A DNA stretch of 64,000 bases. Source: Bdellovibrionales bacterium (GTDB lineage: Bacteria; Bdellovibrionota; Bdellovibrionia; Bdellovibrionales; UBA1609). Each line of letters begins with the position of its first letter. Within the stretch, counting starts at the first letter, position 1. The stretch spans positions 1,385,458 to 1,449,457 of the forward strand of contig OZ220488.1 of assembly GCA_965116155.1 (NCBI GenBank), given 5' to 3'. The position numbers and the translations under genes were made by a program. The notes under the pieces are model-generated. The model made no database searches. It was not told where the DNA came from and worked only from the letters and a program-made list of their open reading frames with translations. Below are positions 10,125 to 60,109 of the stretch, piece by piece.

Positions 10125-10335
10125 TCAAAGAGCTAGCAAGGCAACTGGCATGCGGCGTAGTCCCTTTGGCAGCGCCTTTAGGCGCGTCAGCCAAGGGGGC
10201 CAGCAAGCCTCCAGTGGTCTTGCGGCCTATAAGGCTTTTACGGCCCTGTAGCCTTGGGCGATCTTTAGGCACAAGGCGACCAGACCTTCGTCAAAGATAC
10301 GGCAACTTTGACCTCAAAGTGCAGTCCCCACAAAC
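10125..10335. repeat. Degenerate copy of the linker module of the repeat family, in inverted orientation
   Basis: GCGGCCTATAAGGC...CCTGTAGCCTTGGGCGATCTTTAGGCACAAGGCGACCAGACCTTCGTCAAAG matches the reverse complement of the module at 18603-18682 and 887-984. Confidence 0.55.
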
Positions 10336-17567: not shown

Positions 17568-18602
17568 GTGTTGCGCTGGGTGCTAGCTTTGGTGTGTGTG
17601 AGCCTGCTTTGTCTTTCGGCTTTAAGGTGCGACGAGGCTCCTGAGGTTAGGTCTGCTATTAGGGCTTCTGTGCAGGTGCCGCGTTATTTGCCGCCTTTAA
17701 AGGTGGTAGTGTCTGCCCACTATAAGGGGCCAATTAATATGCAAAGCATGGCTCTAGCGCACTGGTTTTCACCCAGTTTAAAGGATAGAGAAATTTACAT
17801 TAACACCAAACGCCATGCAGAGCTTTATAGTCCTCGGGTGCTTTTGCACGAGGAGTGCGGCGCTCAGGCGGGCGGCGCGGAGCTAAGGAGCGCTCGCTCT
17901 AGCACGCCGCATGCTTCGGGCTTTAAACTTATGCACTGTTTAAGAGCGCAGGCCGAGGGGCAAAGTTCGGTGCTGCTAGGGGTGTCGTCTAAGCCTATTG
18001 TCGCAGGCGAGGTGTTTGAGCCTGAGCAGTCTCGTTTGGTGCAGTTTGTTGTAACACCGCATGCTGCAAAAATCCGCCTTGGTCCTCTTAATAGGGGGTA
18101 TTTTTTTACGGGCCCCACAAAGGCCTTGGATAATGCTTTTGCTGTTTATACTTTGGGTGATGCGCGGGATCCGGCTTTTAATAGTACTGCCCCGGCTACT
18201 GACAGTGTGTGGCCGTTTTTTGAGGGGCGTGTGGGCTTGGGCACTGTGGGCACGGATACCGTGGGGCGCGGCAGCAGCTGCTGTGCCACAGGTGGTGCGT
18301 ATTGCGATTTGCGTAGGGTAGAGGTGCCGGACCCGCGCCATACATCGGACCAAATTGTAGACGCCTGTGTGTTTGTATCGGGCCACAGCTATGCCGACAC
18401 CAAAGTCTCTGGCTATGAGCAGGTGCTATACCCCAGGGCGGCTGTGCTGCCATTGCCGCACCATATGCTGGTGGGTGTTTTAAAGGGAGCGCGGTTTAAA
18501 GCCGTGGCCCGTGTGGATGCCGAAAACCTAGCCCATGAGCTGAGTGCTGCCATTAAGGTCCAAAGCTTGCCCTCTTTTGATGCGCATCAGGGTGCACAGT
18601 AA
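17568..18602 (+). CDS. Orphan secreted protein (344 aa), apparently translationally coupled to the preceding ORF
   Basis: GTG start directly after the upstream TAA. Signal-like LRWVLALVCVSLLCLSALRC. No recognised family. Confidence 0.55.
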   Translation: MLRWVLALVCVSLLCLSALRCDEAPEVRSAIRASVQVPRYLPPLKVVVSAHYKGPINMQSMALAHWFSPSLKDREIYINTKRHAELYSPRVLLHEECGAQAGGAELRSARSSTPHASGFKLMHCLRAQAEGQSSVLLGVSSKPIVAGEVFEPEQSRLVQFVVTPHAAKIRLGPLNRGYFFTGPTKALDNAFAVYTLGDARDPAFNSTAPATDSVWPFFEGRVGLGTVGTDTVGRGSSCCATGGAYCDLRRVEVPDPRHTSDQIVDACVFVSGHSYADTKVSGYEQVLYPRAAVLPLPHHMLVGVLKGARFKAVARVDAENLAHELSAAIKVQSLPSFDAHQGAQ

Positions 18603-18783
18603 GGCTTTGACGGGAGTCTGGTCGCCTTGTGCTTAGAGATCGCACAATGCTGCTACAGGCTCATAGTAGCCTTATAGGCCGCAAAATTCTCTGTAGGACG
18701 CTTGGCACCCTGATGGCCGCCCCTTTGCAAGGGGCTATCAGGATGCCGCCGCTCTACCTCAGAGAATTTTACTAGCGCTCTAA
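18603..18783. repeat. Mosaic unit: linker module + AAAATTCTCTG hairpin (18683-18770) + boundary box
   Basis: GGCTTTGACGGG...GCTACAGGCTCATAGTAGCCTTATAGGCCGC, then a hairpin near identical to 985-1068, then ACTAGCGCTCTAA (18771-18783). Confidence 0.9.
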
Positions 18784-19153
18784 TGCTTACGCATATAGGC
18801 CGCAAAATTCTCTGTAGGACGCTTGGTCCGTAAGGATTAGAGTGTTAGCCACATACTCTGGGCAAAGCGCAGTCTCCAGTGTAGCCCTTTCAGAAAGGGG
18901 CGTGCACACTGGAGACAAGTGCCCCACAGAGTATGTGGCGGCCTATAAGGCTACCATCGCAGACGCCTCTAGCTGTCTAGTGCACAAAAATGCTTCAGGC
19001 AAGACCACTTGTCCATCTGATGGCCCGCGCCTAGAGGCGCTATCAGCTGGACTGCGTAGGACTGAAGACATTTTTGCTGGCACTTTTATGCTTACGCACG
19101 GAGGCTGCTCTTGCGCCGCCGCTCTGCCTCAGAGAATTTTACTAGCACTCTAA
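18784..19153. repeat. A second hairpin module of the same type (18804-19140), interrupted by nested palindromic insertions and ending in a boundary box
   Basis: The arms AAAATTCTCTGTAGGACGCTTGG (18804-) and GCCGCCGCTCTGCCTCAGAGAATTTT (-19140) are split by inner inverted repeats. These are GCCACATACTCTGGG/CCCACAGAGTATGTGGC and a block also present at 47280-47410. Confidence 0.85.
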
Positions 19154-19174: not shown

Positions 19175-20575
19175 ATGGCATCTTGTTCTGCGGTATCATC
19201 TGTTGCGCCTTCTGCTAAGGCGTCTGCTTTAGGCACAAAGCCTGGCGACAAAGTTTTGCTTAGAGGTGTTTATATAAGCACTTATGGCTGTCAGATGAAC
19301 GTCAACGACACCGAGCGCATGTTAAGCCTTTTAGAGATGTCCAACTACACGCAGGTAGATAGCCCTGACAAAGCCATGCTTATTGTAATCAACACCTGCT
19401 CGGTGCGCGAAAAGCCCGTACACAAGTTAAGGTCTGAGGTAGGGCGCTATGCGAGGCTAAAAAAACATGACCCCAATATTTTAATTGGCGTAGGGGGCTG
19501 TGTGGCGCAGCAAAAAAAGCAAGAGCTCTTGCAAGAGGTGCCGTTAGTGGATTTTGTATTTGGCACCGATGCTATCGACCAGTTGCCTAGTATTGTGCAA
19601 AATTTAGAGGCAAAAAGGCGCACCCAAGCTAAGGCCAAGTTAGTAGTTGCCCAATTTGAGCACAAAAAGCCCTACCAGGTAGAAACCTTGGTGCGCTGCC
19701 CGGGGGTGTCGAGTTTTGTTAACATTACCAAAGGCTGCGATAACTTTTGCACCTTTTGCATTGTGCCTTTTACAAGAGGCCGCGAGCGCAGTAGGGCTCT
19801 TAAAGAGCTGGTGTGGGATGTAGAGCGCTTATGCCGGCGCGGTGTAAAAGAGATCGTACTGTTGGGGCAAAATGTAAATTCTTATCGCTCGGCTTGTGGG
19901 GCGGGTTTTGCAGAGCTTTTGGTGAGCCTTTGCGAAAAAACGCAGCTTTCACGTTTGCGCTACACCACCAGCCACCCGAAGGACTTTAACGAAGAGCTTA
20001 TAGATGTTTTGGCGCAGTTTAGAGACAAAATTGTAGAGCACGTGCACCTGCCTGTGCAAAGTGGCAATAGCGATGTTTTAAAAGCCATGAACCGCGGCTA
20101 TACGCGCGCCGAGTACATAAAAAAGGCACATAAGATTTTAAAAAAAATCCCCGGCGTGGCCTTGAGTACGGATATTATTGTGGGTTTTCCAGGTGAAACG
20201 GGGGAGCAGTTTGAGGATACTTTGTCTTTGCTGGAGCAAGTGCCTTATGAGAGTTTGTTTGCATTTAAATATTCACCGCGCCCTAAAACCAAGGCGGCGC
20301 GTTTTACGGACCAAGTGCCCGAGCCAGAAAAATCCGCTCGCCTGCAAAGGTTGTTTGCAAAACACCGCGCGCTGGCGCAGCCTTTGCTGGCACGGCATTT
20401 GGGAACCCGGCAAAGGGTGCTAGTAGAGGAGCAGCGCTCCGACGGCACTTGGTACGGTCGTAGTCCGCACAATAGGCCGACTTACTTTAAGGGTGCATGC
20501 AGTGGGGTGGGGAGCTTTGTGGAGGTGCATATAGAAAAAATCCACCACCAAAGCCTTTGGGGCCGCTGTATATGA
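19175..20575 (+). CDS. miaB: tRNA-2-methylthio-N6-dimethylallyladenosine synthase MiaB
   Basis: YISTYGCQMNVNDTERM, a radical-SAM CDNFCTFCIVP motif, and a TRAM-like C-terminus. The true start could be downstream of 19175. Confidence 0.9.
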   Translation: MASCSAVSSVAPSAKASALGTKPGDKVLLRGVYISTYGCQMNVNDTERMLSLLEMSNYTQVDSPDKAMLIVINTCSVREKPVHKLRSEVGRYARLKKHDPNILIGVGGCVAQQKKQELLQEVPLVDFVFGTDAIDQLPSIVQNLEAKRRTQAKAKLVVAQFEHKKPYQVETLVRCPGVSSFVNITKGCDNFCTFCIVPFTRGRERSRALKELVWDVERLCRRGVKEIVLLGQNVNSYRSACGAGFAELLVSLCEKTQLSRLRYTTSHPKDFNEELIDVLAQFRDKIVEHVHLPVQSGNSDVLKAMNRGYTRAEYIKKAHKILKKIPGVALSTDIIVGFPGETGEQFEDTLSLLEQVPYESLFAFKYSPRPKTKAARFTDQVPEPEKSARLQRLFAKHRALAQPLLARHLGTRQRVLVEEQRSDGTWYGRSPHNRPTYFKGACSGVGSFVEVHIEKIHHQSLWGRCI

Positions 20576-22031
20576 AAGAGCCAGCGGTGCCTTTTGCAGA
20601 CGTGTACGCTTTTGATGATTTGCTTATGGTGCCGCAGGACTCAGACGTGTTGCCGCGCGATGCGGACCTAAGTGTCGATCTGGGTAGAGGGGTGCGCTTA
20701 TCGGTGCCGGTTTTTTCGGCGGCTATGGATACCGTAACCTTGGGTCCTATGGCAGCGGGTATGGCTCGTTATGGAGGCTGTGGGGTGGTGCACCGTAATA
20801 TGTCGGCAGAGGCGCAGGTGAGGGAGGTTCAAAAAGTAAAGCTCACGCATTTGGGTGCTATTGTGGATCCGGTTTGTATAGGGGCGTCTGCTGAGGCTAG
20901 TGTGGCTTTAGAGTTATTAAAAAAGCACAGCATCGGAGGGCTGCCTGTTGTAACAAGTGCGGGGGAGCTTGAGGGAGTACTGACGCGTAAGGATTTGCAA
21001 TTTTGTGTGGATAAAAAACAAAAAGTGCGTGAGCTGATGACAAAAGAGAACCTCGTGACAGCGCCTTTTGGTGTCAGCATAAAAGAGGCGCGCGCTTTGC
21101 TGCGCAAGCACCGTGTCGAAAAATTGCCTCTTTTGGATGCAAGCAATCGCATAAAGGGTTTAATTACGCTAAGCGATTTGGAGCAGCTAGAAAAATTCCC
21201 CCGTGCCACTCGTGACCAGCAGGGGCGTTTGTTTGTGGGGGCGGCTGTGGGAGTGGGCAATACCGAGCGCGAGCGGGCGGAGCAGTTGGTAGGGGCGGGT
21301 GTGGATATGCTCAATGTTGACACCGCCCATGGGCATGCTGTGGCGGTTTGTGAGCAATTAAAGCAGTTAAAGCAGGCGTACCCTAAGGTGTTTATCATGG
21401 GGGGCAATGTTGTCACACAAAAAGCCGCGGAGGCTTTGTTTGAGGCGGGGGCGGATGCGGTAAAAGTGGGTGTGGGTCCGGGCAGTATTTGTACAACGCG
21501 CATTATGAGTGGGGTGGGTGTGCCGCAGGCTTCGGCTATTATGTGGTGTTATAAGGCGGGGTTAAAGCATAAAAAGCCCATCGTGGCAGATGGGGGCTTA
21601 AGGTTTCGGGCGATGTGGCTAAGGCTTTAGCTTTGGGGGCCAGTGCTGTGATGATGGGTAATTATTTGGCCGGCACCGATGCGAGTCCGGGGCGTGTTGT
21701 TACAATAAATGGCCGCAACTACAAGCAGTACCGGGGCATGGGTTCGCGCGCTGCCATGAGGCGCGGCCCTGGTGGCAAAGACCGCTACAAGCAATCGCAT
21801 ATTGGTGAGGATGAGGGCGAGAGCAGCAAGTTTGTACCAGAGGGAGTCGAGGGGCATGTGCCTTATAAGGGGCCTTTGGAGGATGCTTTGTATCAGTTAG
21901 AAGGCGGCTTGCGGGCGGCTATGGGTTATGTGGGAGCCAGTAGCATTCAGCAGCTCCGTGCCCGTGCCACCTTTGTCAAACAAAGCACAAGTGCCCTTCA
22001 AGAGTCTAAGGTACATAGTTTAATAGTTTAA
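20572..22031 (+). pseudogene. guaB: IMP dehydrogenase GuaB, split over two frames by a 1-nt frameshift near 21604-21607
   Basis: The ORFs 20497..21630 and 21615..22031 are colinear with IMPDH (CBS pair, VGVGPGSICTTR, ADGGLRF then VAKALALGASAVMMG). Adding one T to the TTT run restores RFSGDVAKALA. The start ATG at 20572 overlaps the miaB stop (ATGA). Confidence 0.9.
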
Positions 22032-22410
22032 AGGACTAATAAAATTCTCTGGGACAAAGCGGCGGCATCCTGATAGCCTCTGCAAGAGGCGGCCATCAGG
22101 TTGCCAAGCGTCCCGCAGAGAATTTTATGGGCTATACGGCATCTATGAGCCTGTAGCGAAGGGCCGTAGGTCCGTAGCGACCGTACTTTCGTCAAAGCCA
22201 CGTGCTGGACAAAGCGGCGGCGCAAGAGCAGCCTCCGTGCGTAAGCATAAAAGTGTTAGTGAGGGTGCCCTGGCCGGAGAGCGCAGCCGAGTGAGCACTT
22301 TCATGTGCGCAAGGCAAGCGGTCCATGCCAGGGCGCCCTCACGTGCTGGATAGCTTCTGCTCTCAGCCCTACGCAGTCCAGCTGATAGCGCCTAAAGGCG
22401 CGGGCGCCGG
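22029..22410. repeat. Mosaic repeat cluster in inverted orientation (hairpin 22041-22126, linker module, further nested palindromes)
   Basis: TTTAAAGGACTAATAAAATTCTCTGGGAC...CGCAGAGAATTTT, then ATGGGCTATACGGC...CTTTCGTCAAAG, then GTGCGTAAGCATAAAAGTG with the inverted repeat GTGAGGGTGCCCTGG/CCAGGGCGCCCTCAC. The guaB stop (22029-22031) is inside the first motif. Confidence 0.85.
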
Positions 22411-22673
22411 TTAAAGACATCTATGACATTATTCACCTTACGGAACAAGGTCTTAATTATGATCGGCTTTCATCTTTTATTGATATAATTTTTGACCTAC
22501 GCGACACCGCTGTGCCTCGCAGCCTTTATGCTTTTAGTAAAGGTCTTAATCTGACAAGCCTTCAAAAGGCTTGGGGCGGGCTGAGAAAAGAGTCAAAAAA
22601 ATATTCTAGCTTTGAGAAGTTGTGGGGTGACTTTTTAAAATCGATGCTCATCCTCGATCAGGAAATTCTCTAA
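22389..22673 (+). pseudogene. Orphan 3' gene fragment (open frame of about 94 codons with no start codon). It is AT-rich and its 5' end has been replaced by repeat sequence.
   Basis: My translation reads ...VKDIYDIIHLTEQGLNYDRLSSFIDIIFDLRDTAVPRSLYAFSKGLNLTSLQKAWGGLRKESKKYSSFEKLWGDFLKSMLILDQEIL*. The frame is closed upstream by TGA TAG at 22383-22388, and there is no ATG/GTG/TTG until the last 9 codons. Confidence 0.45.
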
Positions 22674-25359: not shown

Positions 25360-25500
25360 TTAGAGCGCTAGACAGCTAAAGCATCTATGGCCCTATAGCG
25401 CAGGGCCCCAAAGAGGCCCAAGGCGACCACACTGCCGTCAAAGCTCCGTGCGATAGACAAAAACCAATTAAAGGACTAATAAAATTCTATGAGGTAGCGC
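25360..25500. repeat. Repeat-family fragment between sdhC and sdhB (boundary box, inverted linker module, truncated hairpin arm)
   Basis: TTAGAGCGCTAG (25360-25371), ...CCCAAGGCGACCACACTGCCGTCAAAGCTCCG..., and AAAGGACTAATAAAATTCTATGAGGTAGCGC ending 2 nt before the sdhB ATG. Confidence 0.8.
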
Positions 25501-26341: not shown

Positions 26342-27652
<1,311 letters not shown>

Positions 27653-33097: not shown

Positions 33098-33831
33098 TGG
33101 TGGCAGTGGTCGTGCTGGCTGTGGCCTGTGTATGCGTGCGCGCGCAAGGCGCAGCTCTTGCGGCGCTTGATCAAAAATCTGTCTCTGCACGCGCACCTAA
33201 AGCTTCAAGGTGGGAGTCTACTAAAAATTGGTTTTTAAACCAAAAGGCCATAAGGCTTTATGAGAGTGGCAATGTATTAGAAGCGAAGAAGATTTTTTTA
33301 GATATTTTAGTAACGGATCCATATAACTTTAGCGCGCGTCTTAATTTGGCTCTGTGTTTTGAAAAGCTTGACCAGCAAGCGGAGTCTTTAAAAGAGTACC
33401 TGTGGATGATAGCAGCGCTTTCTAGCACTAGCGCTATAGATAAAAAAACCTTATTTGGGGTGTATTTTAATGCGGCCCGCAATTTTGTCGCTATGGGCGA
33501 TCTACATGGGGGGCTAAAGCTTTACCAAAAGGCACTGGGTGTTTTGCCTTTGTCGGTTGAGACTAAAAATAATATAGAGCTCTTGCTAACGAAAAAAGTA
33601 TCCCCCCAGTGTACGAACCCCAATGCGCAAGAGGACTCTGATCAAAAAGAGGGTGAAGGAGTGGAGGGACAGCAGCCACAAGGGCAAGAGCCAAGTGCTG
33701 CAGAAAAACTCAGCCCAGAAGAAATCAAAGCCCTACTAGAAGAGCTGCAGCGTCAAGAGCAGCAAGCGCGCAAAAAAGAGCATAAGCGCCGCCTTAAAGC
33801 TCCATCCACACCGGGAGGCAAAGGATGGTAG
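33097..33831 (+). CDS. batC: TPR-repeat protein BatC
   Basis: Signal/TM helix MVAVVVLAVACVCV, TPR-like NVLEAKKIFLDILVTDPYNFSARLNLALCFEKLDQ, and a charged tail. Start chosen at the TAATG overlap with batB. Confidence 0.75.
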   Translation: MVAVVVLAVACVCVRAQGAALAALDQKSVSARAPKASRWESTKNWFLNQKAIRLYESGNVLEAKKIFLDILVTDPYNFSARLNLALCFEKLDQQAESLKEYLWMIAALSSTSAIDKKTLFGVYFNAARNFVAMGDLHGGLKLYQKALGVLPLSVETKNNIELLLTKKVSPQCTNPNAQEDSDQKEGEGVEGQQPQGQEPSAAEKLSPEEIKALLEELQRQEQQARKKEHKRRLKAPSTPGGKGW

Positions 33832-36038
33832 TGCGTAAGCATAAAAGTGGACCCATTACAGCTTGGGTTGGCAGTGCAGCCACCTGCCCCCTTTTAGGGG
33901 ATGCTAAGCAGGTGGCAAGCAAAAACCCTCAAGGTGTAATGGGGGAACTAGACAGCTCTTTGCGGCCCTGCAAATTGAGTCAAAGCGGCGTACCTGTGAA
34001 TGCTGGTAATGTGGAGCAAGGTAAGTTATCACGCCTGCGGCCGGATGATCTTGAGTTAGATAAGTTGAGCGGACTCGATTTGCCACACTTGCGTAGCAAG
34101 AGTCTGTTTGTGCTACTATTATGGGCCTTTAGCTTTGTGGCGGAGGCCAAGCTTAGTGCGCGTGCCATTTTGCCAGAAACCCTTGTGGGCTTGGGGCAGG
34201 AGTTTGAGCTGTCATTAGAGGTGCGCGCGCCTGAGAAGCAAAATATTACCTGGCCTAATATGGCTGCACTAAAGCCGGACTTCAGTGAGGAGCGTAGGTT
34301 TCACTCGTCGCGTTTTCAGTCCTCGTGGTCTTTTGGTAAAGCGAATAAAGAGTACATTTATGTGCTTAGGCTCATACTAAAGGCACACAAGTTGGGGTGG
34401 CATGACCTGCCGGAGTTTGAAATCAGTGCTGCAGGGGTGAAGCTTAAAACTCAAAAACTGGCTCTCGAGGTGGTTGAGCCTAAAAAGGCTCCCCCTCGTG
34501 TGAGGACTTTGCCCAATTGGCCAGGCGGTGGGTTAGGCTCTGGGCATTTGCTGGATTCGTTTAAAGATTTTTTTAACGATACTGATCCTTTTGATCGTGT
34601 GCAAAATGCCAAAAGTTTTGTGCGTTTAAAGGTAGACAAAACCAAGGCCTATATTGGTGAGCCCATTATGGCGGAGTGGTTTTTTTATACCCAGCATCCT
34701 TCGGTGGATTTAGAGCCAGTTAACCCGCCGGATTTGGGTGGATTTTGGAAAGAAGAAATCATCCGCAGTGACACTTTGCATTTTGAGCAAGAGGTTGTAG
34801 GGGGGGAGATGTATAAAAAAAGTCTCCTGTCTTCGTATGTGGTGTTTCCATTAAGCCATGGTGAGCTAGATATCGGAGCTTATGAGGTGCGGCTAAGGGC
34901 TTTTGGTAACAGTAAGGCTGAGCTAAAAAAAAGCACCCCCCTTAAAATTGAGGCGCTCCCTTTGCCGCCTAAGGCTCCCAAAAGCTTCACTCAAGGCGTG
35001 GGAGAGTTTAACGTAAAGTTGTTGTTTGATAAGGCCACTATGCGGCAGCGCGAGCCTTGGACTTTAAGGCTAAGCATTAGTAGCGTGAGCCCTTATGCTA
35101 ATGCCAGGCGCGTGGCATTGCCTGCAAGTTTAAAGTGGCCAGAGGGTTTAGAGCTATACGATACCAAAGTGCACACAGAGTATAAAGCCAGTGGTAAATC
35201 GCTTAAGATTTTTGAGTTTGTTTTTTTGCCCCAAAACTTAGGCACAGTGGTTATGCCTCCGCTAACTTTGGGGTTTTTTAACCCCCAAACCCAGCAGTAT
35301 TATGAAAAACTCACAACGCAACTTAGTCTTAATGTGCAGCCAGGTTTACAAACACCAAACAGTACAGCAAGTGACGCGGCGACAGATAATGTCCAAGACC
35401 TAGCGCGGGGCTCAGGTGGTTTGGGTAGTGCAACAGCGCCACGCAGCTTAGCCCTACTTAAAAGTCTTGGCCCTGTGGGATGGTACGATGCTTACCCTTT
35501 GTGGGTTTGGAGGCTCTTTGTAATTTTGGCTTTGGTGATAGCTGTGGGGGTATGGAGTTTAAAAAGGCAGTTGCGGTTTTTAAAAGTACAGGGGTTAGAC
35601 AAAAAAGTTCTTTTAAAAATTAAACATCTTAAGCGCTTGCAGCAAAAGCTACAAAAGGTCACAAATGCCAGCGATGGTGCTAATAGTGGCTTTAATGAAG
35701 AGCAGAGGCGTTTGTTAGCAAGGGAAATTTTAGACGTGCTTAATTTTTTAGCTTGGACAGCTGTATCTCAGTTGCAAGCCCAGCAAAATACTTTGCAGCA
35801 TGAGACTCGCGACATAAGTTATGTGGTGTCTTTGTGGCCAGCAGATTTGCGCAGTAGTTTGGGCGGTGTGTTTTTAGAGTTAAGCCATGTGTTTTCCGGC
35901 TATGCCTTTGCTCCTCAAGCAGCACCAGACGCAGGTGCAGTAACAAAAGCGGCCTTCTCTAAGCAGTTAGAGCTTTTGATCCATGCTGCACTTAAGTTAG
36001 AAGAGTGGCACAAGCAGCGCTCTCGGGTTAAGCTGTAG
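33825..36038 (+). CDS. batD: BatD-like (oxygen-tolerance family) membrane protein. The first ~85 codons of the ORF-track model are repeat-derived, so the true start may be TTG at 34080 or 34089.
   Basis: Size and position follow batC. A signal-like SLFVLLLWAFSFVAEA comes after codon 90, and a late TM helix (LWVWRLFVILALVIAVGVW) is typical of BatD. Confidence 0.7.
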   Translation: MVVRKHKSGPITAWVGSAATCPLLGDAKQVASKNPQGVMGELDSSLRPCKLSQSGVPVNAGNVEQGKLSRLRPDDLELDKLSGLDLPHLRSKSLFVLLLWAFSFVAEAKLSARAILPETLVGLGQEFELSLEVRAPEKQNITWPNMAALKPDFSEERRFHSSRFQSSWSFGKANKEYIYVLRLILKAHKLGWHDLPEFEISAAGVKLKTQKLALEVVEPKKAPPRVRTLPNWPGGGLGSGHLLDSFKDFFNDTDPFDRVQNAKSFVRLKVDKTKAYIGEPIMAEWFFYTQHPSVDLEPVNPPDLGGFWKEEIIRSDTLHFEQEVVGGEMYKKSLLSSYVVFPLSHGELDIGAYEVRLRAFGNSKAELKKSTPLKIEALPLPPKAPKSFTQGVGEFNVKLLFDKATMRQREPWTLRLSISSVSPYANARRVALPASLKWPEGLELYDTKVHTEYKASGKSLKIFEFVFLPQNLGTVVMPPLTLGFFNPQTQQYYEKLTTQLSLNVQPGLQTPNSTASDAATDNVQDLARGSGGLGSATAPRSLALLKSLGPVGWYDAYPLWVWRLFVILALVIAVGVWSLKRQLRFLKVQGLDKKVLLKIKHLKRLQQKLQKVTNASDGANSGFNEEQRRLLAREILDVLNFLAWTAVSQLQAQQNTLQHETRDISYVVSLWPADLRSSLGGVFLELSHVFSGYAFAPQAAPDAGAVTKAAFSKQLELLIHAALKLEEWHKQRSRVKL
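33832..33990. repeat. Repeat-family member inserted between batC and the batD body, open in the batD frame
   Basis: GTGCGTAAGCATAAAAGTG...GTGCAGCCACCTGCCCCCTTTTAGGGGATGCTAAGCAGGTGGCAAGC...CTAGACAGCTCTTTGCGGCCCTGCAAATTGAGTCAAAGCGGCG is colinear with 38612-38780. Confidence 0.75.
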
Positions 36039-36865: not shown

Positions 36866-38214
36866 TTGTGTGCGAAGTTGCAAGAGCGTCCGCAGCACCT
36901 TTATGCAAGAAAATGCAAGTCGTCTGTTAGGAGGCATTTTTTTATATCTGCACGGCGGGGTGTTTTAAAGCCTGAAACACTAGACAAGGCATGGGTTGTG
37001 GATTTGGCCGAGGCTTTATTTGCGGCAGAAAACTACGCCGGTGTTTTAAGGTTGTTAGATGGCGCGGAGTTTAAGGGCAGTAAAAACAGCAGCACGGCTT
37101 CAGGGCTTTGGTTTATAAAAGGGCAGTCGCTTTTATATTTAGGGCATTACGAAAAAGCGGAGCAAGCTTTTTTAAAAAGCCAAAACCCGGGATGCGTGGT
37201 TTTTTGCTATGCTAGCAGGTTTTAGACTTAAAAACTATAAGCTAGCAGCAGACTATGCTCAGCGGTATTTAATGACCGATTCTAAGCTGCGCTTGCAGGC
37301 CATGCACTGGTTGTGGCGTGCGCATCAGCAAATGGGGAACAAAGCACGTGCGCGCGCGCGGGCTCAAGACATTTTACAAAAATACCCCCTAAGCTTTTAT
37401 GGTTTAAAGGCGCGTAAGTTTTTAAACGGCACAGTAGAGTGTGCACAAAAAAACACCTGGAGCACTTATAGGGTAGAGCTTGATCCTGAGCAAACACGGG
37501 CTTTAAGGGCGTTTTTGGTTTTGTCGCGCGTGGGTTTGGCGAAAGAGGCGCTCATGCCACTAGAGCTTCTAGGACAATTAGTGTCGGGGTTTAATTTGTT
37601 ATTTTTGTCGCGTGTGTATGCAGAGGTGGATACTTTGCAAAGTATGTCTTTTGGGCGCGGCGGCAATTGAAAATAATCCGCAATTTTTTTCGCGCGAGGT
37701 TTTGGAGGTTATTTTTCCGCGTAAATATATGCCGCACATAGAGCCTGAGAGCAAAAAGTGGGGTCTAGATGCAAACTTAGTGCTGGGACTTATTCGCCAA
37801 GAGAGTGCTTTTAATCCGCGAGCTAGAAGTGCTGCAGGTGCTAGAGGACTGATGCAAGTGTTGCCTAGCACAGCGCGCGAGATGCGTCGGTATTTGCGTG
37901 CTTATCGCAAGTTGCCTTTGCCTAGCGGGCTCTACCGTCCAAGGGCGAACATTGCAATTGGCACCTACTATTTAAAAAGGTGGCTTAAGGTGTTTAACGG
38001 ACATGTGCCTATTACGTTGGCGTCTTATAATGTGGGGCCTGGCAACTTAAGAAAATGGCTCAAAAAGCGTCAAGATACCGATCAGCTTTGGGTGAGAAAG
38101 AGCGCAAATTATTTGGACGATCTTTGGGTGGATGAGCTTCCTTGGGCTGAAACCCGCTACTATGTCCAAGCCGTCTTGCGCAACTTTATGGTCTATAAAT
38201 GTCTAGCAATTTAA
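36866..38214 (+). pseudogene. slt: Soluble lytic murein transglycosylase (Slt70-like), fragmented over three reading frames
   Basis: The C-terminal SLT domain is LVLGLIRQESAFNPRARSAAGARGLMQVLPSTA...YNVGPGN. The upstream ORFs are helical-repeat, like the Slt U-domain. Frame changes occur at the T6 run 37200-37205 and at TTTTGGG 37649-37655. Confidence 0.8.
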
Positions 38215-38816
38215 AGGACTAATAAAATTCTCTGGGACTAAGCGGCGGCGCAAGAGCAGCCTCCCAGTGCCTTTGAAGTGAGTTTGGGCGCTTCGTTCCC
38301 CTGCGGGGCCCTTCGCTATCAGCGCGTTGATAGCTGTCTAGCGCGCAAAAACACTTTGAATGGGAGCCTTGCTTGCCACCTTGGCTGGCGCCCCTTGCAG
38401 GGGCTGCCAATGTGTCTGCGTCTCTGATCAAAGTGTTTTTGCTGGCGCTTTTATCCTTACGGGCCAAGCGTCCCACAGAGAATTTTATGGGCTATACGGC
38501 TTTTACGGTCCTGTAGCCTTGGGTGTTCGATAGACCCAAGGCGACCAGATTGTCGTCAAAGTTCCGTGCGTTGAGCAAATACAATTTAAAGGACTAATAA
38601 AATTCTCTGGGACTAAGTGCGTAAGCATAAAAGCGCCAGCAATGTTACCCTTGAACCTTAGAGTGCAGCCATCTTGGTTGCCCAAAGGGCATTAGCCAAG
38701 ATGGCAAACGTAGGCTTCAAGTTAATATTGCGCGCTAGACAGCTATCTATGGCCTTGTAAATCGAGTTAAAGCGGCGCTCTTGGCGCTTTTATGCTTGCG
38801 CAGCTAGCGCTTTAAA
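38210..38816. repeat. Large mosaic repeat cluster: two TTTAAAGGACTAATAAAATTCTCTGGGAC heads, nested palindromes and an inverted linker module
   Basis: The head motif occurs at 38210-38238 and 38584-38612. The arm CCAAGCGTCCCACAGAGAATTTT is followed by ATGGGCTATACGGC...GTCGTCAAAG. The cluster ends in GCTTTTATGCTTGCGCAGCTAGCGCTTTAA. The slt stop (38212-38214) lies inside the first head. Confidence 0.85.
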
Positions 38817-39616: not shown

Positions 39617-40427
39617 ACTAACAGCGCGCGCAAGGTCTTGGGCCAAGGCATTTACCTTGGTGGAGCTTATGGTGGTGGTGGTGATTATTGGTATCTTGGC
39701 TACCATTGCTGTGCCCAGTTACCACCGTATGCGCGTAAAGGCTAATATCGCCAAAGCCGAGTCCGAGCTAGTGGCGATACATGATATTATGCAGCTGTTC
39801 CATGCAGAGTGGCGGGCCTATGCAGGAGATTTGGGTGCGGCAGGCTATAAGCCCAGTGGGGATTATAATTTTGATATTGGTTTTAGGAACGGTCGCTTTT
39901 GTTCTTCTCAAGCCGGAATGTACAACGAAGAGACCGATTTTGTTTCACCTACACGGCATAGGGATATGGGAGGCAATGTACTTTTGGGTGACCAGCAGGG
40001 TATTGGTTGTGGGCCTTATGCTCAGAGAAAGTATGATGGACCTGCTAGTCCTTACCGCATTGCTTTGGTCCGTGTGGGTGGCTTGAATATGGGGGACGAA
40101 GACCCCGATGGTCATTTTTGCCGTGAGGATATGGCAGATGGTTTTGCATGCCGGTATGTGGGTGGCGGGCATGTGAAACCCTCGGCATTGGGTGCAGTCA
40201 TTTCGCCAGATCACTTTGTTAGTGTGGCTTTAGGTGTGCCAAGTGGCCACGCCCTTAGGACGATGGCGGCAGCGCTTAAGCGTAACTGCTATAATTTCCC
40301 TACGTTTGATAACATGATGGAGGGCACAGGTTGGGGCTGGGTAGGTTATGTGGATCAAAACAAAAACCTAAAAACTTACAAAATTAAGGCTATGGAGCAG
40401 ATTCCCCCCATTGGCTCCGGCTGCTAG
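39606..40427 (+). CDS. Second type IV pilin-like protein, 273 aa
   Basis: MICKLTARARSWAKA followed by FTLVELMVVVVIIGILATIAVPSY. It overlaps the upstream pilin gene by 11 nt. Confidence 0.8.
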   Translation: MICKLTARARSWAKAFTLVELMVVVVIIGILATIAVPSYHRMRVKANIAKAESELVAIHDIMQLFHAEWRAYAGDLGAAGYKPSGDYNFDIGFRNGRFCSSQAGMYNEETDFVSPTRHRDMGGNVLLGDQQGIGCGPYAQRKYDGPASPYRIALVRVGGLNMGDEDPDGHFCREDMADGFACRYVGGGHVKPSALGAVISPDHFVSVALGVPSGHALRTMAAALKRNCYNFPTFDNMMEGTGWGWVGYVDQNKNLKTYKIKAMEQIPPIGSGC

Positions 40428-40440
40428 CGCTCTAACTGCT

Positions 40441-42783: not shown

Positions 42784-42858
42784 GGTCCCCCAAAACCCTC
42801 CCTCAACAAGACCATTTGAACAAACTCCTCCCCAGGGAGTCTAGTCGTAGCGCTTTAA

Positions 42859-43212
42859 CCCATGGCATTTTCCTAGCGCTCTGATTTGTTATTTACTCAG
42901 TGTACGGAGCTTTGACGGCAATCTGGTCGCTTCGGGCCTTTGGCCCTTCTTTCTAGCCCGCCTGAGCATTTGAGTCTGTCGTTTGTCCTCCTGGGTTTTT
43001 CATCCTTGCAGGATGTTCCCAAGAGGACTGCACTCATTGCTCAAATGCTCAGACTAGGCTTTTATGCTTACGCACTTCGCTACAGGCTCATAGATGCTTC
43101 ATAGGTCGGAAAATGCCATGTGGGACGCTTATCTTCCTGATGGCCGCCCCTTCACAGGGGCTATCAGGAAGATGCGCTTAATCCCATGGCATTTTCCTAG
43201 CGCTCTGATTTG
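42859..43212. repeat. Mosaic repeat cluster flanked by a perfect 30-bp direct repeat. It contains the linker module, an 87-bp long hairpin (42964-43050) and hairpin AAAATGCCATG...CATGGCATTTT (43110-43195).
   Basis: CCCATGGCATTTTCCTAGCGCTCTGATTTG occurs at 42859-42888 and 43183-43212. The internal ~205-bp block is near identical to 50525-50728. Confidence 0.9.
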
Positions 43213-46095: not shown

Positions 46096-47106
46096 ATGAG
46101 GTTATCTATGGTCCTGGTTGTACGGATGGGGTTTTTGAGTTTGCTCTTGGGCTTGCTGTTGCCGGGTGTGTGCTCCGTAGCGGCGCTGCCTCCGTTTGAG
46201 GCTTTTTCTGGCGCAATTCCGGATGATGGATCTTCGGCTGATGAGTCTTGGGGGGATGTGTTTTTGTCAGGCGGGGATTGGGAGCCTGGGGAGGTCCCAG
46301 AGACGCCACAAGAGACGCCGGGTTTTCCGAGTGTTGAGGGCATGGTGAGGGTGAGTAGGTTTTTTTCTGGCTGTTCGGGTAGCTTGGTGGCTTTTGACAC
46401 TTACAGGGAGTCTGATGAGGCTTTGGTTTTAACTAATGGCCATTGTACGGGTAAGGGTTCTTATAAGGGGCGTTATCCTGGAGCGGGCGAGATTTTTATA
46501 AACCAGCCGCCTGGTCGCGTTAAGTTGAGATTTTACAACACCCAGGGCAAGAGCATGCGTTTTGCAGCAAGCGCGTTGCGGTATGCCACTATGTTAAAGT
46601 TTGACATTGCTTTTTATGCTTTGGGCAAAACCTATGGCGAGCTGCAGGCTTTGGGCTTTGAGCCTTTAATCATAAGCCGGCGCGAGGCTGTGGATGAGGG
46701 GCAGAGCCTGTTATTAGCGTCGAGCTATTGGAGGGTTGAGGGCCGGTTGGATATGTGGTCTTGGGTGGGCCAGCACTATGCGCCGGCTACTCAGGCCAAG
46801 CTGCTTGAGGGGCCGTGGAGCTGGTGGCCTATGCTGAGGCTGCGGCCTACGTCGGTAAGGCTGGTGGGCGGGATGTCGGGGTCGCCCTTGTTGGACTCTG
46901 CGGGTCAGGTGGTTGGCTTGTTGAACACAGGCTATACGGGGGGCGAGCCTTGCTCGGTGCACAACCCCTGCGAGGTGGCAGGTGACGAGCGTCTGGTGTA
47001 CGCAGGTGCAGGTTATGCTATGCCGCTAGCCACTTTGTACGGGTGTGTAGATGAAGAGTCTGGCACACTAGATATTTACCTACCCGAGTGTCCGCTGCCC
47101 AATTAA
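46096..47106 (+). CDS. Secreted trypsin-like serine protease
   Basis: RBS GGGGGAG precedes the ATG at 46096. The signal peptide is MGFLSLLLGLLLPGVCSVAA. The catalytic His context is VLTNGHC and the Ser context is GGMSGSPLLD. Confidence 0.75.
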   Translation: MRLSMVLVVRMGFLSLLLGLLLPGVCSVAALPPFEAFSGAIPDDGSSADESWGDVFLSGGDWEPGEVPETPQETPGFPSVEGMVRVSRFFSGCSGSLVAFDTYRESDEALVLTNGHCTGKGSYKGRYPGAGEIFINQPPGRVKLRFYNTQGKSMRFAASALRYATMLKFDIAFYALGKTYGELQALGFEPLIISRREAVDEGQSLLLASSYWRVEGRLDMWSWVGQHYAPATQAKLLEGPWSWWPMLRLRPTSVRLVGGMSGSPLLDSAGQVVGLLNTGYTGGEPCSVHNPCEVAGDERLVYAGAGYAMPLATLYGCVDEESGTLDIYLPECPLPN

Positions 47107-47466
47107 AGCGCTAGTAAAAACTCTTTAAGCAGTAAGTGAAGCCCCCTTGGCCCCCGTAGTGGGTGTCATGTAAGGGGGCGAAACGAAAGCCTTAAAGAGT
47201 TTTTACGACCTATACAGCTTACGCACTTATAGGTCGCAAAATAAAATTGGGTAATGCGCCATCTCCCTAGCAGACGCCTCTTGCTGTCTAGTGCACAAAA
47301 ATGCTTCAGGCAGGATCACTTGTCCCCCTGATGGCCCGCGCCTTTAGGCGCTATCAGGGAGACTGCGTAAGGCTGAAGACATTTTTGTTGGCACTTTTAT
47401 GCTTACGCACAGAGGCTGCTCTGGATCTGGCTTTTATTGCCCAATTTTATTTTTCTAGCACTCTAA
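47103..47466. repeat. Mosaic repeat cluster bridging two convergent genes
   Basis: Boundary variant TTAAAGCGCTAG (47103-47114). Hairpin AAAAACTCTTTAAGC...GCCTTAAAGAGTTTTT (47116-47204). Inverted TATAGGTCG pair. Hairpin AAAATAAAATTGGG...CCCAATTTTATTTT (47238-47454), which carries a nested insert. CTAGCACTCTAA (47455-47466). Confidence 0.9.
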
Positions 47467-55756: not shown

Positions 55757-58700
55757 ATGAGCGTCGGACCTGTAGCGGCTTCTAACTTGCGCTTGCGCAG
55801 CAGTTATTCGCGCATACCTTCTACGGTGGAGGTGCCTAATTTAATCGAGATCCAGCGCAGCTCGTACGACAAATTTTTGCAAAAAGACGTACCTCCCAAT
55901 GAGCGTACAGACAATGGGCTGCAGGCTGTGTTTAAGTCGGTGTTTCCGGTTTTCGACTTCAACAAGGCGTCTAGCTTGGAGTTTGTAAGCTACTCGTTTG
56001 ACGAGCCCAAGTGCGATGTTTCAGAGTGCCTGCAGCGTGGCATGAGCTATGCGGCTTCTATTAAGGGTGTGTTTCGGCTGGTTATTTTGGATGTCGATAA
56101 ACAAACAGAAGCGCGCAGCATTAGGGATGTAAAAGAGCAAGAGGTGTACTTGGGGGAGATTCCCCTTATGACTCAGAGGGGGTCTTTTATAATCAACGGC
56201 ACGGAGCGTGTGGTGGTGAGCCAGTTGCACCGTAGCCCGGGTGTGTTTTTTGACCATGACCGTGGGCGCAACACTTCGACCACGGGCAAGCTGCTTTATT
56301 CGGCACGGGTGATCCCTTATAGGGGGTCTTGGTTGGATTTTGAGTTTGACCAAAAAGACCTGCTCCATGTGCGTATTGATCGCAAGCGTAAGTTTCCCGC
56401 TACGATATTGCTTAAGGCTTTGGGTTACAGTGCACAGGATATTTTAAGCTACTACTACAATGTTGAGACGATTCGTTTTGATGAAAAAGCCAAAGGTTTC
56501 AAAAGGCAGTTGGATTTAGAAAAAATGTCTCGCCAGCAGGTGAGCACGGATATTGTGGATCCGCGTACGGGTGAGGTGATCGTAAAGGCGGGGCAGCGGT
56601 TAACGCGCGCGCGGGTGCGTAAAATTGAAGAAGCCAAAATCGAGTGGGTGCTTCTACCTGAAGAGGGCATTGTAGGCAAGGTGTTAGGCGAGCCTGTGGT
56701 AGACATGAAAACGGGCGAAATTTTAGCCGACACCAACGATGAGCTATCGGTTGAAATTATCACCAAAGCTTTAGAGCTTGGGGTTAAGGAGTTTAAGCTG
56801 ATCTTTTTTGACGGGCTTTCGGTGGGTCCGTATTTGCGCAATACCCTTCTGGTGGACAAGGTGTTTTCACAAGAAGAAGCCTTGCTCGATATTTACCGGC
56901 GCTTGCGCCCTGGGGAGCCTTCTACCAAAGAGGCAGCCGAGCTGCATTTTCATCGGTTATTTTTTGCTCCTGAAACCTACGACCTTAGCACAGTGGGTAG
57001 GCTTAAAATTAACCACCGGTTTGGCATTACTGAGGATGAGTGTCCGTTAAGCCACTGTGTGTTGACAAAAAAGGACATCCTCGAGGTTGTGCGCACTTTG
57101 GTGGGCTTGAGAAATGGCCTTGGCAAAACGGACGACATCGACCATTTGGGTAATCGTAGGGTGCGGTCTGTTGGGGAGCTTTTAGAAAACCAATACCGCA
57201 TTGGTTTGGTGCGCATGGAGCGAGTGATCCGCGAGCGTATGAGCTTGCAAGACTCGGCTACTATGATGCCTCACGACCTGGTGAACATTAAGCCGGTAAA
57301 TTCTGTGGTGAAGGAGTTTTTTGGCAGCTCGCAGTTGTCGCAGTTTATGGACCAGACAAATCCTTTGTCAGAAATCACGCACAAGCGTAGGCTTTCGGCC
57401 TTGGGTCCGGGGGGGTTAACGCGGGATCGTGCGGGCTTTGAGGTGCGCGATGTGCACCCCACGCATTATGGGCGCATTTGTCCTATTGAGACTCCCGAGG
57501 GGCCCAACATTGGTTTGATTTCTAGCTTGGCGACTTTTGCTCGGGTTAATAAATACGGCTTTATTGAAACCCCGTACCGTAAGGTAGAAAACGGCAAGGT
57601 CGAAGACGAGCATAAGTATATGTCAGCCTTGCAAGAGCAGGGGCACTGCATTGCGCAGGTGGACCGCGAGAGCTTTGATGGCGTAAAGGCCGATAACCTG
57701 ACGGTGCGTGTGGATGGTGAGTGTGAGCTTGTGGATAAAGAAAAAGTCTCACTCATGGATGTGTCACCTGCGCAGTTGGTTTCGGTTGCAGCGTCGCTGA
57801 TACCTTTTTTGGAGCATGACGACGCCAACCGTGCGCTTATGGGCTCTAATATGCAGCGCCAGGCGGTGCCTTTGTTGAGGGCTAAAGCTCCTTTGGTGGG
57901 TACGGGTGTAGAAGAGCTGGTGGTGCGGGACTCGGGGACTAATATTTTGTGCCAGCACGATGGTGTGGTGGACGAGGTCGATGCGGAGCGCATTGTGGTG
58001 CGCCGGTTGCGGGGAGACGTAGTGGGAGCGCGGGCGGATATTTACAAGCTCACCAAATACCAGCGCACCAACCAAAATACTTGTTTTAACCAAAGGCCCA
58101 TTGTGCAAAAGGGCGACCGGGTTCAAAAGGGCACGGTTTTGGCGGATGGGCCTTCGAGCGAGTTGGGCGAAGTGGCTTTGGGGCAGAATGTGCTGGTGGC
58201 CTTCGCACCTTGGATGGGCTACAACTTTGAGGATTCGATTCTGATTTCAGATAGGCTCATTCGGGATGATGTGTACACCTCTGTGCATATTGAGGAGTTC
58301 GAGTGCGTGGCCCGTGACACTAAGCTGGGTCGGGAGGAGATCACCCGTGACATTGCCAATGTGGGTGAAGAGGCTTTGGGCTCTTTGGACACTAGTGGGA
58401 TCGTGCGCATTGGTGCAGAGGTAAGGCCTGGAGATATTTTGGTGGGCAAGGTGACTCCCAAGACGGAGACACAGCTGTCGCCAGAGGAGAAGCTGCTGCG
58501 GGCGATTTTTGGTGAAAAAGCCAGCGACGTGCGGGACACCTCTTTAAGGGTGCCGTCGGGAGTTTCGGGCACTGTGATAGACGCGCAGGTTTATTCGCGC
58601 GAAGGCCCGGAGGGCGATGCGCGCTTGCAAGAGATTGTGGCAGAAAAGCGCGAACGCTTAAAAAAAGACTTAGACATTGAGCAACATGTTTTGCGCTCGG

Positions 58701-60109
58701 CTGTTTTAGAGGAGCTGCGTACGCTCATAGTGGGGCAAGAGGTACAAGGGGAGCTGTTGGATGAAGACGGCGATGCGTGCTTGCTTAAAAAGGGGCACCT
58801 GTTAACCGATGCCGACATAGAGCGCATACCTTTCGCGCTGTTGGGGTATATTCCGCTTAAGCCGGAGCTAGAGACCCAGTGTCAGGGTATTGTAGAAAAC
58901 GCGCGGGCGCGTTTAGACAAAATTGCTGCATCTTTTCAAGAGCGTTCAGAGCGCTTATCTAAGGGCGACGATCTGCTGCCTGGGGTTATTAAAATGGTTA
59001 AAATCCATGTTGCCATTAAGCGCAAGTTGCAGGTGGGGGATAAATTTGCAGGGCGTCACGGTAATAAGGGGGTGATTTCTAAGGTGGTGGCGCAGGAGGA
59101 TATGCCGTATTTGGCGGATGGTACGCCTGTGGATATGGTGCTTAACCCCTTGGGTGTGCCATCGCGTATGAACATAGGCCAGGTGTTGGAGATACACCTG
59201 GGCTGGGCGGCGTGGCAGCTGGGCCAGGACATAAAGCCGTACTTAGAAAAATGGCAGTCTCAGGAGGTTAGGGAGGCTTTTAAAAAGGCTTATAACGACC
59301 CACAGGTGAGCCGCAAAATCGACACAGCGGATGATGAGTCGCTGAAAAAAATGCTCGGCTATGTGGATAGGGGGGTGCATTTTTCTACCCCGGTATTTGA
59401 TGGGGCTTTAGAGAAGGATGTTAAACATGCTCTGCATAGGGCGGGCTTGCCTTCTACGGGGCAGACTTTGTTGTTCGATGGGCGTACGGGTGAGGCTTTT
59501 CATACTCCCGTTACGGTGGGCATTATGTACATGTTAAAGCTGCATCATTTGGTGGAAGAAAAAATCCACGCCCGTTCTATAGGCCCGTACTCTTTGGTGT
59601 CGCAGCAGCCTTTGGGTGGTAAGGCTCAGTTTGGTGGTCAGCGTTTGGGCGAGATGGAGGTTTGGGCCATTGAGGCTTATGGGGCGTCTTATGCGCTTCA
59701 GGAGTTTTTGACGGTTAAGTCGGATGATGTTGCGGGCCGTACGCGCATGTACGAGAGCATTGTTAAGGGCGAAAACATACTAGAGCCTGGCTTGCCAGAG
59801 AGTTTTAATGTTTTGGTAAAAGAGCTGCAGGCCTTAGCGCTCAATGTGGAGCTAGTGGAGTCAGGGGAGCTAACCGAAAAAGCGCCTGACACCAAGGTCG
59901 AGGTAGGAGCGGGTAGGGATCTTGCAGCTAGTACTGCATCTGCTACAAGCCCGACCGTTCAAGAGGGTGTGGTGGATTTAGAGGCGGAGTCGATGGCGCA
60001 GGCGGGGGCCGGTATGGGCTTGGAGGATGACGATGCAGAGTCTACCTCAGATACGGATACGGAAAAGGGAGCGGACGTAGATACAGATAAAGACGTTAGT
60101 GAGAGCTAG
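55757..60109 (+). CDS. rpoB: DNA-directed RNA polymerase beta subunit (1450 aa, with an acidic C-terminal extension)
   Basis: Conserved blocks run throughout ([91 protein letters not shown]). Confidence 0.98.

Follow-up and report, generated by a model that had tools for sequence, protein, structure and literature searches.

The DNA described here is a 64-kb stretch (64,000 nucleotides) of the 1.61-Mb contig OZ220488.1 from a Bdellovibrionales bacterium; this whole stretch is referred to below as the window, and all results on its repeats are drawn from it alone. Scans of its 39 open reading frames (ORFs) with Pfam and NCBIfam profiles identify housekeeping genes such as clpXP, pepA, a sigma factor, ffh/ftsY, guaB and sdhAB, together with a moxR/DUF58/VWA operon, pilin-like genes, dnaB, ftsK, a BCCT transporter and the nusG-rplKAJL-rpoB cluster. 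The FtsK protein is 52% identical to its closest homologue outside the window, and its named matches are from Bdellovibrionales. Large hairpins lie in gaps between these genes, and the subject of this analysis is the one at 43110-43195, hairpin A', and the repeat family to which it belongs. The features of its array are listed here, with scores from a covariance model, R1, that is described below; the A/T frame is the A-tract and T-tract that enclose some of the hairpins.

42850..42872, plus strand: truncated 3' half of a second A' hairpin (repeat D3, 95% identical to 43174-43212)
42885..43109, plus strand: long linker upstream of hairpin A', reading GGAGCTTTGACG, a small hairpin, CTACAGG and CATAGGTCGG, and carrying a hairpin I unit
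42964..43050, plus strand: hairpin I, without A/T frame, inserted in the linker just upstream of 43110-43195
43110..43195, plus strand: hairpin A', outer stem TGCCATG/CATGGCA, middle stem ATCTT/AAGAT, core CCTGATGG...GGGGCTATCAGG; R1 94.7 bits
43197..43208, plus strand: flank module X, CTAGCGCTCTGA, directly after hairpin A', with about 15 further copies in the window

Hairpin A' is best understood beside its comparison copy, hairpin A at 985..1068 (plus strand; outer stem TTCTCTG/CAGAGAA; R1 96.9 bits). A first-pass annotation, made from the sequence alone, had quoted both hairpins and proposed that co-varying changes in their arms imply selection on structure, and the quoted sequences match the window exactly at 985-1068 and 43110-43195. 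From base to apex, both consist of an A-tract/T-tract, an outer stem, an asymmetric internal loop, a middle stem, a 3-nucleotide (nt) 5' bulge and a G+C-rich apical stem. The RNA minimum free energy is −41.2 kcal/mol for 985-1068 (z −6.3) and −49.2 kcal/mol for 43110-43195 (z −7.9), and in each case 0 of 200 dinucleotide shuffles were as stable. Eight differences separate the two 5' arms, and every one is mirrored by a complementary change in the 3' arm. Three of them fall in the outer stem (TTCTCTG/CAGAGAA vs TGCCATG/CATGGCA) and four in the middle stem (GGCAC/GTGCC vs ATCTT/AAGAT), the two stems in which the annotation had described changes; the remaining one is in the second tier, which reads AGG/CCT in 985-1068 and GGG/TCC in 43110-43195. 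The segments GGACGCTT, CCTGATGG and GGGGCTATCAG are identical in both hairpins, again as described, and a G-T wobble within CTGATG/TATCAG is also unchanged. Other arms that had been quoted are present as well (AAAATAAAATTGGG at 1180-1269 and 47238-47453, AAAACAAACTTGG at 50729-50815 and 50849-50935, and AAAAACTCTTTAAGC at 47116-47205), and the small hairpin of the linker does vary between copies. The core pattern GGACGCTTN5CCTGATGG occurs four times in the window, compared with 0.02 expected.

The covariance model R1 was built from six copies and then run over the window, where it finds 18 full-length hairpins (81-92 nt, around 86) of approximately 13 arm types, distributed over 12 intergenic arrays. 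The E-values range from 2.5e-26 to 1e-4, with a weaker match (E 0.12) for hairpin H, and R1 matches within genes are no more frequent than chance. Every hairpin scores far higher on one strand than on the other (for example, 54.7 vs 19.2 bits and 44.4 vs 16 bits), which indicates a shared asymmetric architecture beyond mere palindromy. This architecture comprises three stem tiers with conserved unpaired elements: a 5' CGYTT that precedes the middle stem, a 3' CTGCRC that comes after it, the 3-nt 5' bulge and a TTGCA-like apex, all of which are kept across 12 arm-type representatives. Length and loop positions are equal in all arm types.

Covariation extends through this family. In an alignment of six A and C sequences, 85.8% of cells pair, against 38-49% when the partners are slid; double changes occur at 10 of 34 pairs, against 5.3 in shuffles (1 of 500 shuffles reaches 10), and the G-U pair of CTGATG/TATCAG is invariant in all six copies. 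For the 18 hairpins, an alignment was made with MAFFT from sequence only, blind to structure, and RNAalifold predicts 10 pairs from it, nine of them with a compensatory change. A fuller structure placed on the same alignment gives a paired fraction of 84.7% of cells, which falls to 33-49% on sliding; double changes affect 16 of its 19 pairs, with 72 cells involved compared with 23 in shuffles. Covariation scores 0.519 in the data and 0.191 after shuffling, and 0 of 500 shuffles attain the observed value, although the copies are related within one 64-kb window and the shuffle statistics therefore overstate their independence. Many positions show three or four pair types, and the stems of hairpins D, K, J and M grade into one another one base pair at a time, a pattern that looks like divergence from a common ancestor and not like block swapping. 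The proposed covariation thus stands, for 18 hairpins and not two only and far above the slide and shuffle controls; the accompanying suggestion about terminators does not hold as a general statement, as discussed below.

These controls cannot tell selection on structure from the copying of one arm onto the other, and for this reason six young pairs of copies, 88-98% identical, were compared. Unpaired bases differ at 22 of 133 positions and paired bases at 15 of 394 (odds ratio 5.0, Fisher p = 4.5e-6), so that paired bases change approximately four times less often, with the reservations that the counts are small, the copies related and single-stranded loops perhaps more mutable. Within stems, three double changes are compensated, two changes produce G-U and seven are single breaks. 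Of the compensated doubles, two recur in other copies; the third is represented by one arm's state only, in a truncated C copy, and on direct reading the seven breaks appear private to single copies. Arm copying alone, which the first-pass annotation had named as a possible source of arm symmetry, predicts no deficit in stems, because copying or reverting a mutation keeps the mean number of changed stem bases equal; a four-fold deficit points instead to purifying selection on pairing. Selection on pairing, at the level of RNA or of single-stranded DNA, is therefore supported by the comparison of these sequences.

The other members of the family are as follows.

18683..18770, plus strand: hairpin A, second full copy; R1 100.5 bits
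22041..22126, minus strand: hairpin A, third full copy, second tier GGGAC/GTCCC, apex GCCTC/GAGGC; R1 100.7 bits
1180..1269, plus strand: hairpin B, uninterrupted, arms TAAAATTGGG/CCCAATTTTA; repeat I4, found by R1
18987..19075, plus strand: hairpin C, CTGATGG...CTATCAG core as in A, own arms ATGCTTCAG/CTGAAGACAT; R1 64.9 bits
47298..47386, plus strand: hairpin C, second copy, in the apex of hairpin B at 47238-47453; repeat D4, 158 nt, 90%
38348..38439, plus strand: hairpin D, arms ACACTTTGA/TCAAAGTGT; repeat I7, R1 51.7 bits
47117..47203, minus strand: hairpin E, arms AAAAACTCTTTAAGC; repeat I1, found by R1
50731-50813 and 50851-50933, plus strand: hairpin F, two tandem copies, period 120 nt, 97% matches; repeat D10, found by R1
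18850..18937, minus strand: hairpin G, without A/T frame, arms CACATACTCTG; R1 54.7 bits
22262..22339, minus strand: hairpin H, without A/T frame, arms GTGAGGGCGCCCTGGC; −54.4 kcal/mol, weak R1 match
50588-50674: hairpin I, second copy; repeat D12, 96%
38645..38725, minus strand: hairpin J; R1 31.8 bits
10136..10223, minus strand: hairpin K, beginning 12 nt past the stop codon of the sigma-factor gene; R1 36.6 bits
33855..33940, minus strand: hairpin M, separating two genes of a single operon; its flank modules (33829-33990) are degenerate

A solo imperfect palindrome of 43 nt lies downstream of clpX (4893-4935). It matches R1 only at model positions 22-63 (E 0.005), with a TTGC apex and a 5' bulge, and is without an outer stem, flank modules or a T run on the clpX strand.

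The 12 arrays together cover about 3.8 kb, approximately 6% of the window. Their approximate positions are 865-1282, 9020-9162, 10125-10310, 18600-19153, 22023-22420, 25360-25500, 33829-33990, 38207-38815, 40424-40435, 42850-43208, 47103-47466 and 50484-50971. Within them, hairpins are spaced by 20-210 nt without ORFs, units occur in both orientations, and some are repeated in tandem with periods of 120 nt and 195 nt. Several units interrupt others, and hairpin I sits within two copies of the linker. The clearest cases of interruption, and one related palindrome, are these.

47238..47453, plus strand: hairpin B, its apical loop split between TTGC and AGAGG by a 126-nt unit made up of hairpin C and a flank on either side
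9020..9162, minus strand: interrupted A, bounded by TTAGAGTGCTAG and CTAGCGCTCTAA; 25-nt arms 96% complementary, with other modules replacing the inner part; repeat I2
18803..19140, plus strand: interrupted A, with about 290 nt of nested units, hairpins G and C; repeats D2 and D15
38222..38487, minus strand: interrupted A, containing hairpin D and other modules; repeats D9, D17 and D19
867..886, strand-neutral: perfect 20-nt palindrome TTAGAGTGCTAGCGCTCTAA, 2 nt past the annotated end of tRNA-Ser; repeat I8

When the 126-nt unit is removed, hairpin B at 47238-47453 aligns end to end with 1180-1269. Similarly, the palindrome at 867-886 reads as the 9020-9162 element minus an insert between two CTAG; the comparison of these paralogous sites gives only a hint of insertion at CTAG with duplication. 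A weak, sub-threshold Rfam match to sX4 (762-944) overlaps both tRNA-Ser and this palindrome.

The arms of the hairpins vary within a constant setting. In R1 orientation, the 5' flank is TATAGGYCGC or AGCTGTCTAGYGCRC (also written AGCTGTCTAGYGC), and the 3' flank is CTAGCRCTCTRA or GCTGGCRCTTTTA (also written CTAGCRCTCTAA), usually followed by TGCTTACGCAC. The motif CTAGCRCTCTRA occurs 22 times in the window against 1.0 expected. Hairpins are joined by a short X-Y-Z connector or by a linker module of about 100 nt, of which there are nine copies (repeats D7, D11, D16 and D18); in addition to the copy upstream of hairpin A', these include the following.

886-984, 1081-1179, 18600-18682 and 50506-50728, plus strand: linker copies
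10224-10301, 22128-22200, 25371-25448 and 38489-38566, minus strand: linker copies

The linker modules carry small covarying hairpins of their own, and the octamer CTTTGACG is invariant in seven aligned modules (for example, 905-920). It holds TTGACG, which resembles a −35 box; a convincing −10 box is absent at 16-18 nt. Read in reverse, seven of the nine linkers show CCTGTAG followed by an imperfect palindrome of 26-30 nt, and the remaining copies read CTGC or TATAG. Exact CCTGTAGC has seven matches in the window, five of them within linkers; with one mismatch allowed there are 84, compared with 61 expected.

Many gene ends are defined by the repeats. At least nine stop codons fall inside the flank module, as CTAGCRCTCTRA or its reverse complement (TTAGAG/TTTAAAG...), at 1279, 9023, 22031, 38214, 40427, 43197, 47106, 50497 and 50960, and two more, at 10124 and 33831, directly adjoin repeat modules. 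Next to hairpin A', for example, the CTA of flank module X (43197..43208) is the stop codon of a minus-strand Fis-like gene. The C-terminus of the BCCT transporter ORF (end 47447) runs into a hairpin, and the ORF 33825-36038 of the moxR/DUF58/VWA operon reads through the hairpin M unit (33825-33990); its true start is probably downstream, near 34000. A 103-amino-acid ORF wholly within a repeat array (18842-19153) is almost certainly spurious. As a source of stop codons and of spurious ORFs, and with about 6% of the sequence made up of them, the repeats have to be reckoned with when this genome is annotated and assembled.

The location of the arrays raises the question of a function in RNA. The first-pass annotation had noted that an A-tract, stem and T-tract is also the architecture of a bidirectional intrinsic terminator, and it has been considered here more widely whether the hairpins are RNA elements of the host, either such terminators or 3'-end stabilisers, with pairing kept by that role. 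Like terminators, seven of the roughly 13 arm types (A, A', B, C, D, E and F) have an A4-5...T4-5 frame, and hairpins are sited after stop codons and between convergent genes. At several genes the first hairpin begins 8-12 nt past the stop codon, 11 of the 12 arrays touch a gene 3' end, and arrays occupy five of seven convergent-gene gaps compared with seven of 44 other gaps (p = 0.005). The strength of the RNA folds (z −3.4 to −8) and the invariant G-U pair of the A and C families also fit this explanation. Against it, the frame is absent from G, H, I, J, K and M, including K and M, which are the first hairpins after their genes, and where T runs are present they are only 4-5 bases long and adjoin an A/T-rich stem base. 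In contrast to intrinsic terminators, these hairpins are far longer, interrupted by internal loops, stacked and nested, with half of the arm types lacking a T run; up to four or five occupy a single gap, and where they are nested the outer one is unable to fold simply. The genes around one array (25360-25500) are divergent, and of the arrays that separate co-directional genes, five carry the asymmetric unit antisense and one carries it sense. The canonical strand has 18 G-U pairs and the other strand nine, with the canonical strand more stable in eight of 11 hairpins, these copies not being independent; on the transcribed strand there is no enrichment of G-U. Private pair-breaking mutations are tolerated. 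Furthermore, no matching family was found in Rfam 15, for which only four tRNAs in the window pass the gathering thresholds and no match with E ≤ 1 overlaps the hairpins. A consensus terminator scan registers none of them, a scan that is unable to score long interrupted hairpins. The bias in position is equally a property of repetitive extragenic palindromic (REP) sequences, which are not terminators by origin. Taken as an explanation of the whole family, a host RNA function appears unlikely. Some copies may serve as terminators or stabilisers, a role that fails to account for the family, and if hairpins do prove to be terminators they would provide an example of terminators spread by a repeat element.

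A second alternative is that there is no selection on structure at all, and that complementarity is kept mechanically by quasi-palindrome template switching or by gene conversion from arm to arm. Imperfect inverted repeats are known to be corrected by template switching, three compensated doubles at 5-12% divergence are far more than independent mutation would give, and the two strands of the hairpins fold about equally well, all of which would suit such copying. It would leave the mean change in stems unlowered, yet paired bases in the young copies are about four-fold less changed (p = 4.5e-6), and seven single mismatches in these copies have gone uncorrected. Across arm types and beside perfect stems, asymmetry has been retained: the 5' arm has TT where the 3' arm has CTGC, the 5' bulge of 3 nt is kept, and the G-T wobble is present in 6/6 copies. 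This persistence argues against wholesale homogenisation of the arms. We regard this explanation as improbable. Least probable of all is that covariation is an artefact of modular nesting, in which short palindromes inserted into the centres of others leave a young core in unrelated old arms: nesting is real at 47238-47453, 18803-19140 and 38222-38487, and the apex CGCCTCTTGCAGAGGCT is common to hairpin B and the A copy at 22041, yet A and A' share the frame, GGGACGCTT and the core while differing in the outer and middle stems that lie between these layers, an alternation that nesting could produce only through several independent events at identical positions. Small single-pair changes separate the middle stems of D, K, J and M, up to three or four pair types occur per position, and all arm types are equal in length and loop positions.

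The nesting, tandem units, truncation, constant flanks and private decay together point to selection among copies of a repeat rather than on host RNA. We consider it somewhat likely that the hairpins are a lineage-specific family of non-autonomous units, resembling REPs, bacterial interspersed mosaic elements (BIMEs) and REP doublets forming hairpins (REPINs), and that they are propagated by an enzyme that recognises the folded single strand. Each unit consists of the 5' flank (TATAGGYCGC or AGCTGTCTAGYGC), the three-tier hairpin of about 86 nt and the 3' flank (CTAGCRCTCTAA plus TGCTTACGCAC). On this reading the units have multiplied in intergenic DNA and inserted into one another, and with their tandem duplication they have built up mosaic arrays comparable with BIME, REP and REPIN arrays in proteobacteria. 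A trans-acting enzyme, most plausibly an HUH/Y1 transposase of the REP-associated tyrosine transposase (RAYT) or IS200-IS605 type or another hairpin-binding recombinase, would make sequence-specific contacts with the unpaired motifs, the bulge and the flanks, and would need the stems merely as stems. Copies still able to fold would be copied again and non-folding copies would drop out, such that changes in stems could persist in successful lineages when compensated, while single inserted copies would decay through private mismatches. The presence of about 13 unrelated outer-arm sequences under one architecture disfavours transposases that read terminal inverted repeats and fits recognition of structure; likewise, a deficit of change in stems combined with private breaks is the pattern expected when folding copies propagate and inserted copies decay. 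A narrower version of the proposal, in which one enzyme reads the loop and bulge nucleotides and the CTAG-containing flanks, accepts any stem and inserts into CTAG palindromes and into the loops of older copies, is offered as tentative.

Several observations weigh against propagation by such an enzyme. The sequences themselves show the family and its architecture, the covariation, the slower change of paired bases, the nesting and tandem duplication, and the siting at gene ends; mobility, the single-stranded DNA intermediate and the enzyme itself are things that we infer, mobility from paralogous comparisons only. No transposase, RAYT or other HUH gene was found among the 39 ORFs of the 64 kb with Pfam and NCBIfam profiles. 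The repeat was absent from metagenome contigs, searched with patterns of 31 and 20 specified bases, and from viral contigs, and the FtsK locus of the nearest relative, L115, is without a homologous repeat. A GTAG head is inconsistent on the large hairpins, being present in some A copies only; on the reverse strand, most large hairpins have GCAG adjoining the inner palindrome. Among the copies in the window there is no clear target-site duplication beyond the CTAG at one paralogous comparison. IS200/IS605-type elements usually show a replication-related strand bias; here it is absent, with approximately 14 units on the plus strand and 11 on the minus strand in a window where the GC skew is mostly positive. 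The signal of strand asymmetry in folding is weak. The sampling of a single 64-kb window and the relatedness of the copies belong with these points. Other searches concerned the distribution of the family: a scan of genome contigs with a 16-base pattern, which is too short, returned 114 chance loci in unrelated taxa, none with the full or flank motif, and a literature search on repeats in Bdellovibrionota yielded nothing relevant.

Locus L115 (ENA ERZ25067936 contig_1, 88318-110795, in a contig of 2.5 Mb) is the nearest relative found, through FtsK. Its GC content is 43%, compared with about 50% in the window, and it contains many ankyrin and Sel1/TPR proteins, as well as rve and Transposase_31 genes; this gene content hints at a host-associated lifestyle for the lineage. 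Some genes of the window are unusual in themselves. The guaB gene (IMPDH) is in two overlapping ORFs (20497-21630 and 21615-22031), which as a pair span one Pfam/NCBIfam model end to end, and dnaB is likewise split (42783-41770 and 41795-41343) into parts that together make up one full model; both may be either frameshifted pseudogenes or the result of indel errors of assembly. The product of rpoB (55757-60109) has 1450 residues, about 100-200 beyond the length covered by profiles, probably owing to lineage-specific insertions. A perfect (CT)14.5 dinucleotide run at 26393-26421, near the 3' end of an ORF without a Pfam match (26342-27652), may be prone to slippage.

The kind of element is already known, namely intergenic palindromic mosaic repeats with compensated hairpins, and the family itself is without a match in Rfam or the other collections searched. 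Some known systems can be set aside. Integron attC sites were rejected for the hairpins, which have no RYYYAAC/GTTRRRY cores at their ends, no cassettes and no integrase among the scanned ORFs. CRISPR, TIGR or retron-like arrays were also rejected, given that the hairpins standing in as 'spacers' are found again at several loci and that genes associated with such arrays are missing. The GTAAGC of the Y motif is merely a resemblance to the ends of IS66-like elements, and the X motif is found only inside repeats, unlike a DNA uptake sequence.

Miniature inverted-repeat transposable elements (MITEs) such as Correia/NEMIS, ERIC/IRU, RUP and Nezha offer another comparison. Like the present family, they lie between genes as units of 100-150 nt whose ends are inverted and that often run into the ends of genes, and on transcription they form RNA hairpins; a possible target duplication of CTAG here (867-886 vs 9020-9162) would be a further likeness. 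MITEs share the terminal inverted repeat of a parent insertion sequence, whereas the present family has about 13 unrelated ends and there is no parent insertion sequence in the window.

REPs are imperfect palindromes of 20-50 nt that come after a conserved tetranucleotide, usually GTAG, and are often found in BIMEs, and the bulge in the REP stem is required for cleavage by TnpA_REP (PMC8266576). In common with REPs and BIMEs, the family has many intergenic copies that favour gene 3' ends and convergent gaps, imperfect palindromes with conserved bulges and mismatches, and mosaic arrays in both orientations with few recurrent linker motifs and with tandem units. In seven of its nine copies the linker has the defining anatomy of a REP, a GTAG-headed palindrome of 26-30 nt. 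The main hairpin differs in being around 86 nt long with three tiers, in its approximately 13 arm types under one architecture, compared with one to three tightly conserved REP sequences, and in lacking a consistent GTAG; its units also nest in each other's loops. The tnpA_REP (RAYT) gene that goes with REPs, typically with REPs on its flanks, has no counterpart among the scanned ORFs of the window. Compensatory changes have been reported to be common in REPIN hairpins (Bertels and Rainey 2011, PMC3116915). The family shares with REPINs these changes, a long hairpin (about 70-100 nt) that is presumed to be what replicates, tandem clusters, and singlet or truncated remnants. REPINs, however, have conserved 16-mers at their ends and a variable spacer, whereas here the outer stems vary most and what is conserved are the internal-loop motifs and the flanks outside the hairpin. 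The GTAG-headed palindromes of the linker are single or in direct repeat and never inverted doublets, and in this the family departs from the definition of a REPIN.

If propagation of folded units is the correct reading, it extends REP/BIME-type repeats to a poorly known and probably host-associated lineage. The family would then also be a natural experiment, in which one architecture has been carried through at least a dozen complete turnovers of stem sequence, leaving the unpaired recognition nucleotides exposed, and it could help to define what hairpin-recognising transposases or recombinases read. With a structure that is kept and a stem sequence that is free, the family works more like attC sites, whose role as substrate is likewise set by the folded single strand and extrahelical bases, with little conservation of sequence; they are the best-known precedent at the DNA level for this combination. 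Should a single enzyme prove to read the loops, bulge and flanks of any stem, the hairpins of this deep Bdellovibrionota-like lineage would represent a new class of non-autonomous element, recognised through structure as attC sites are and dispersed over the genome as REPs are.

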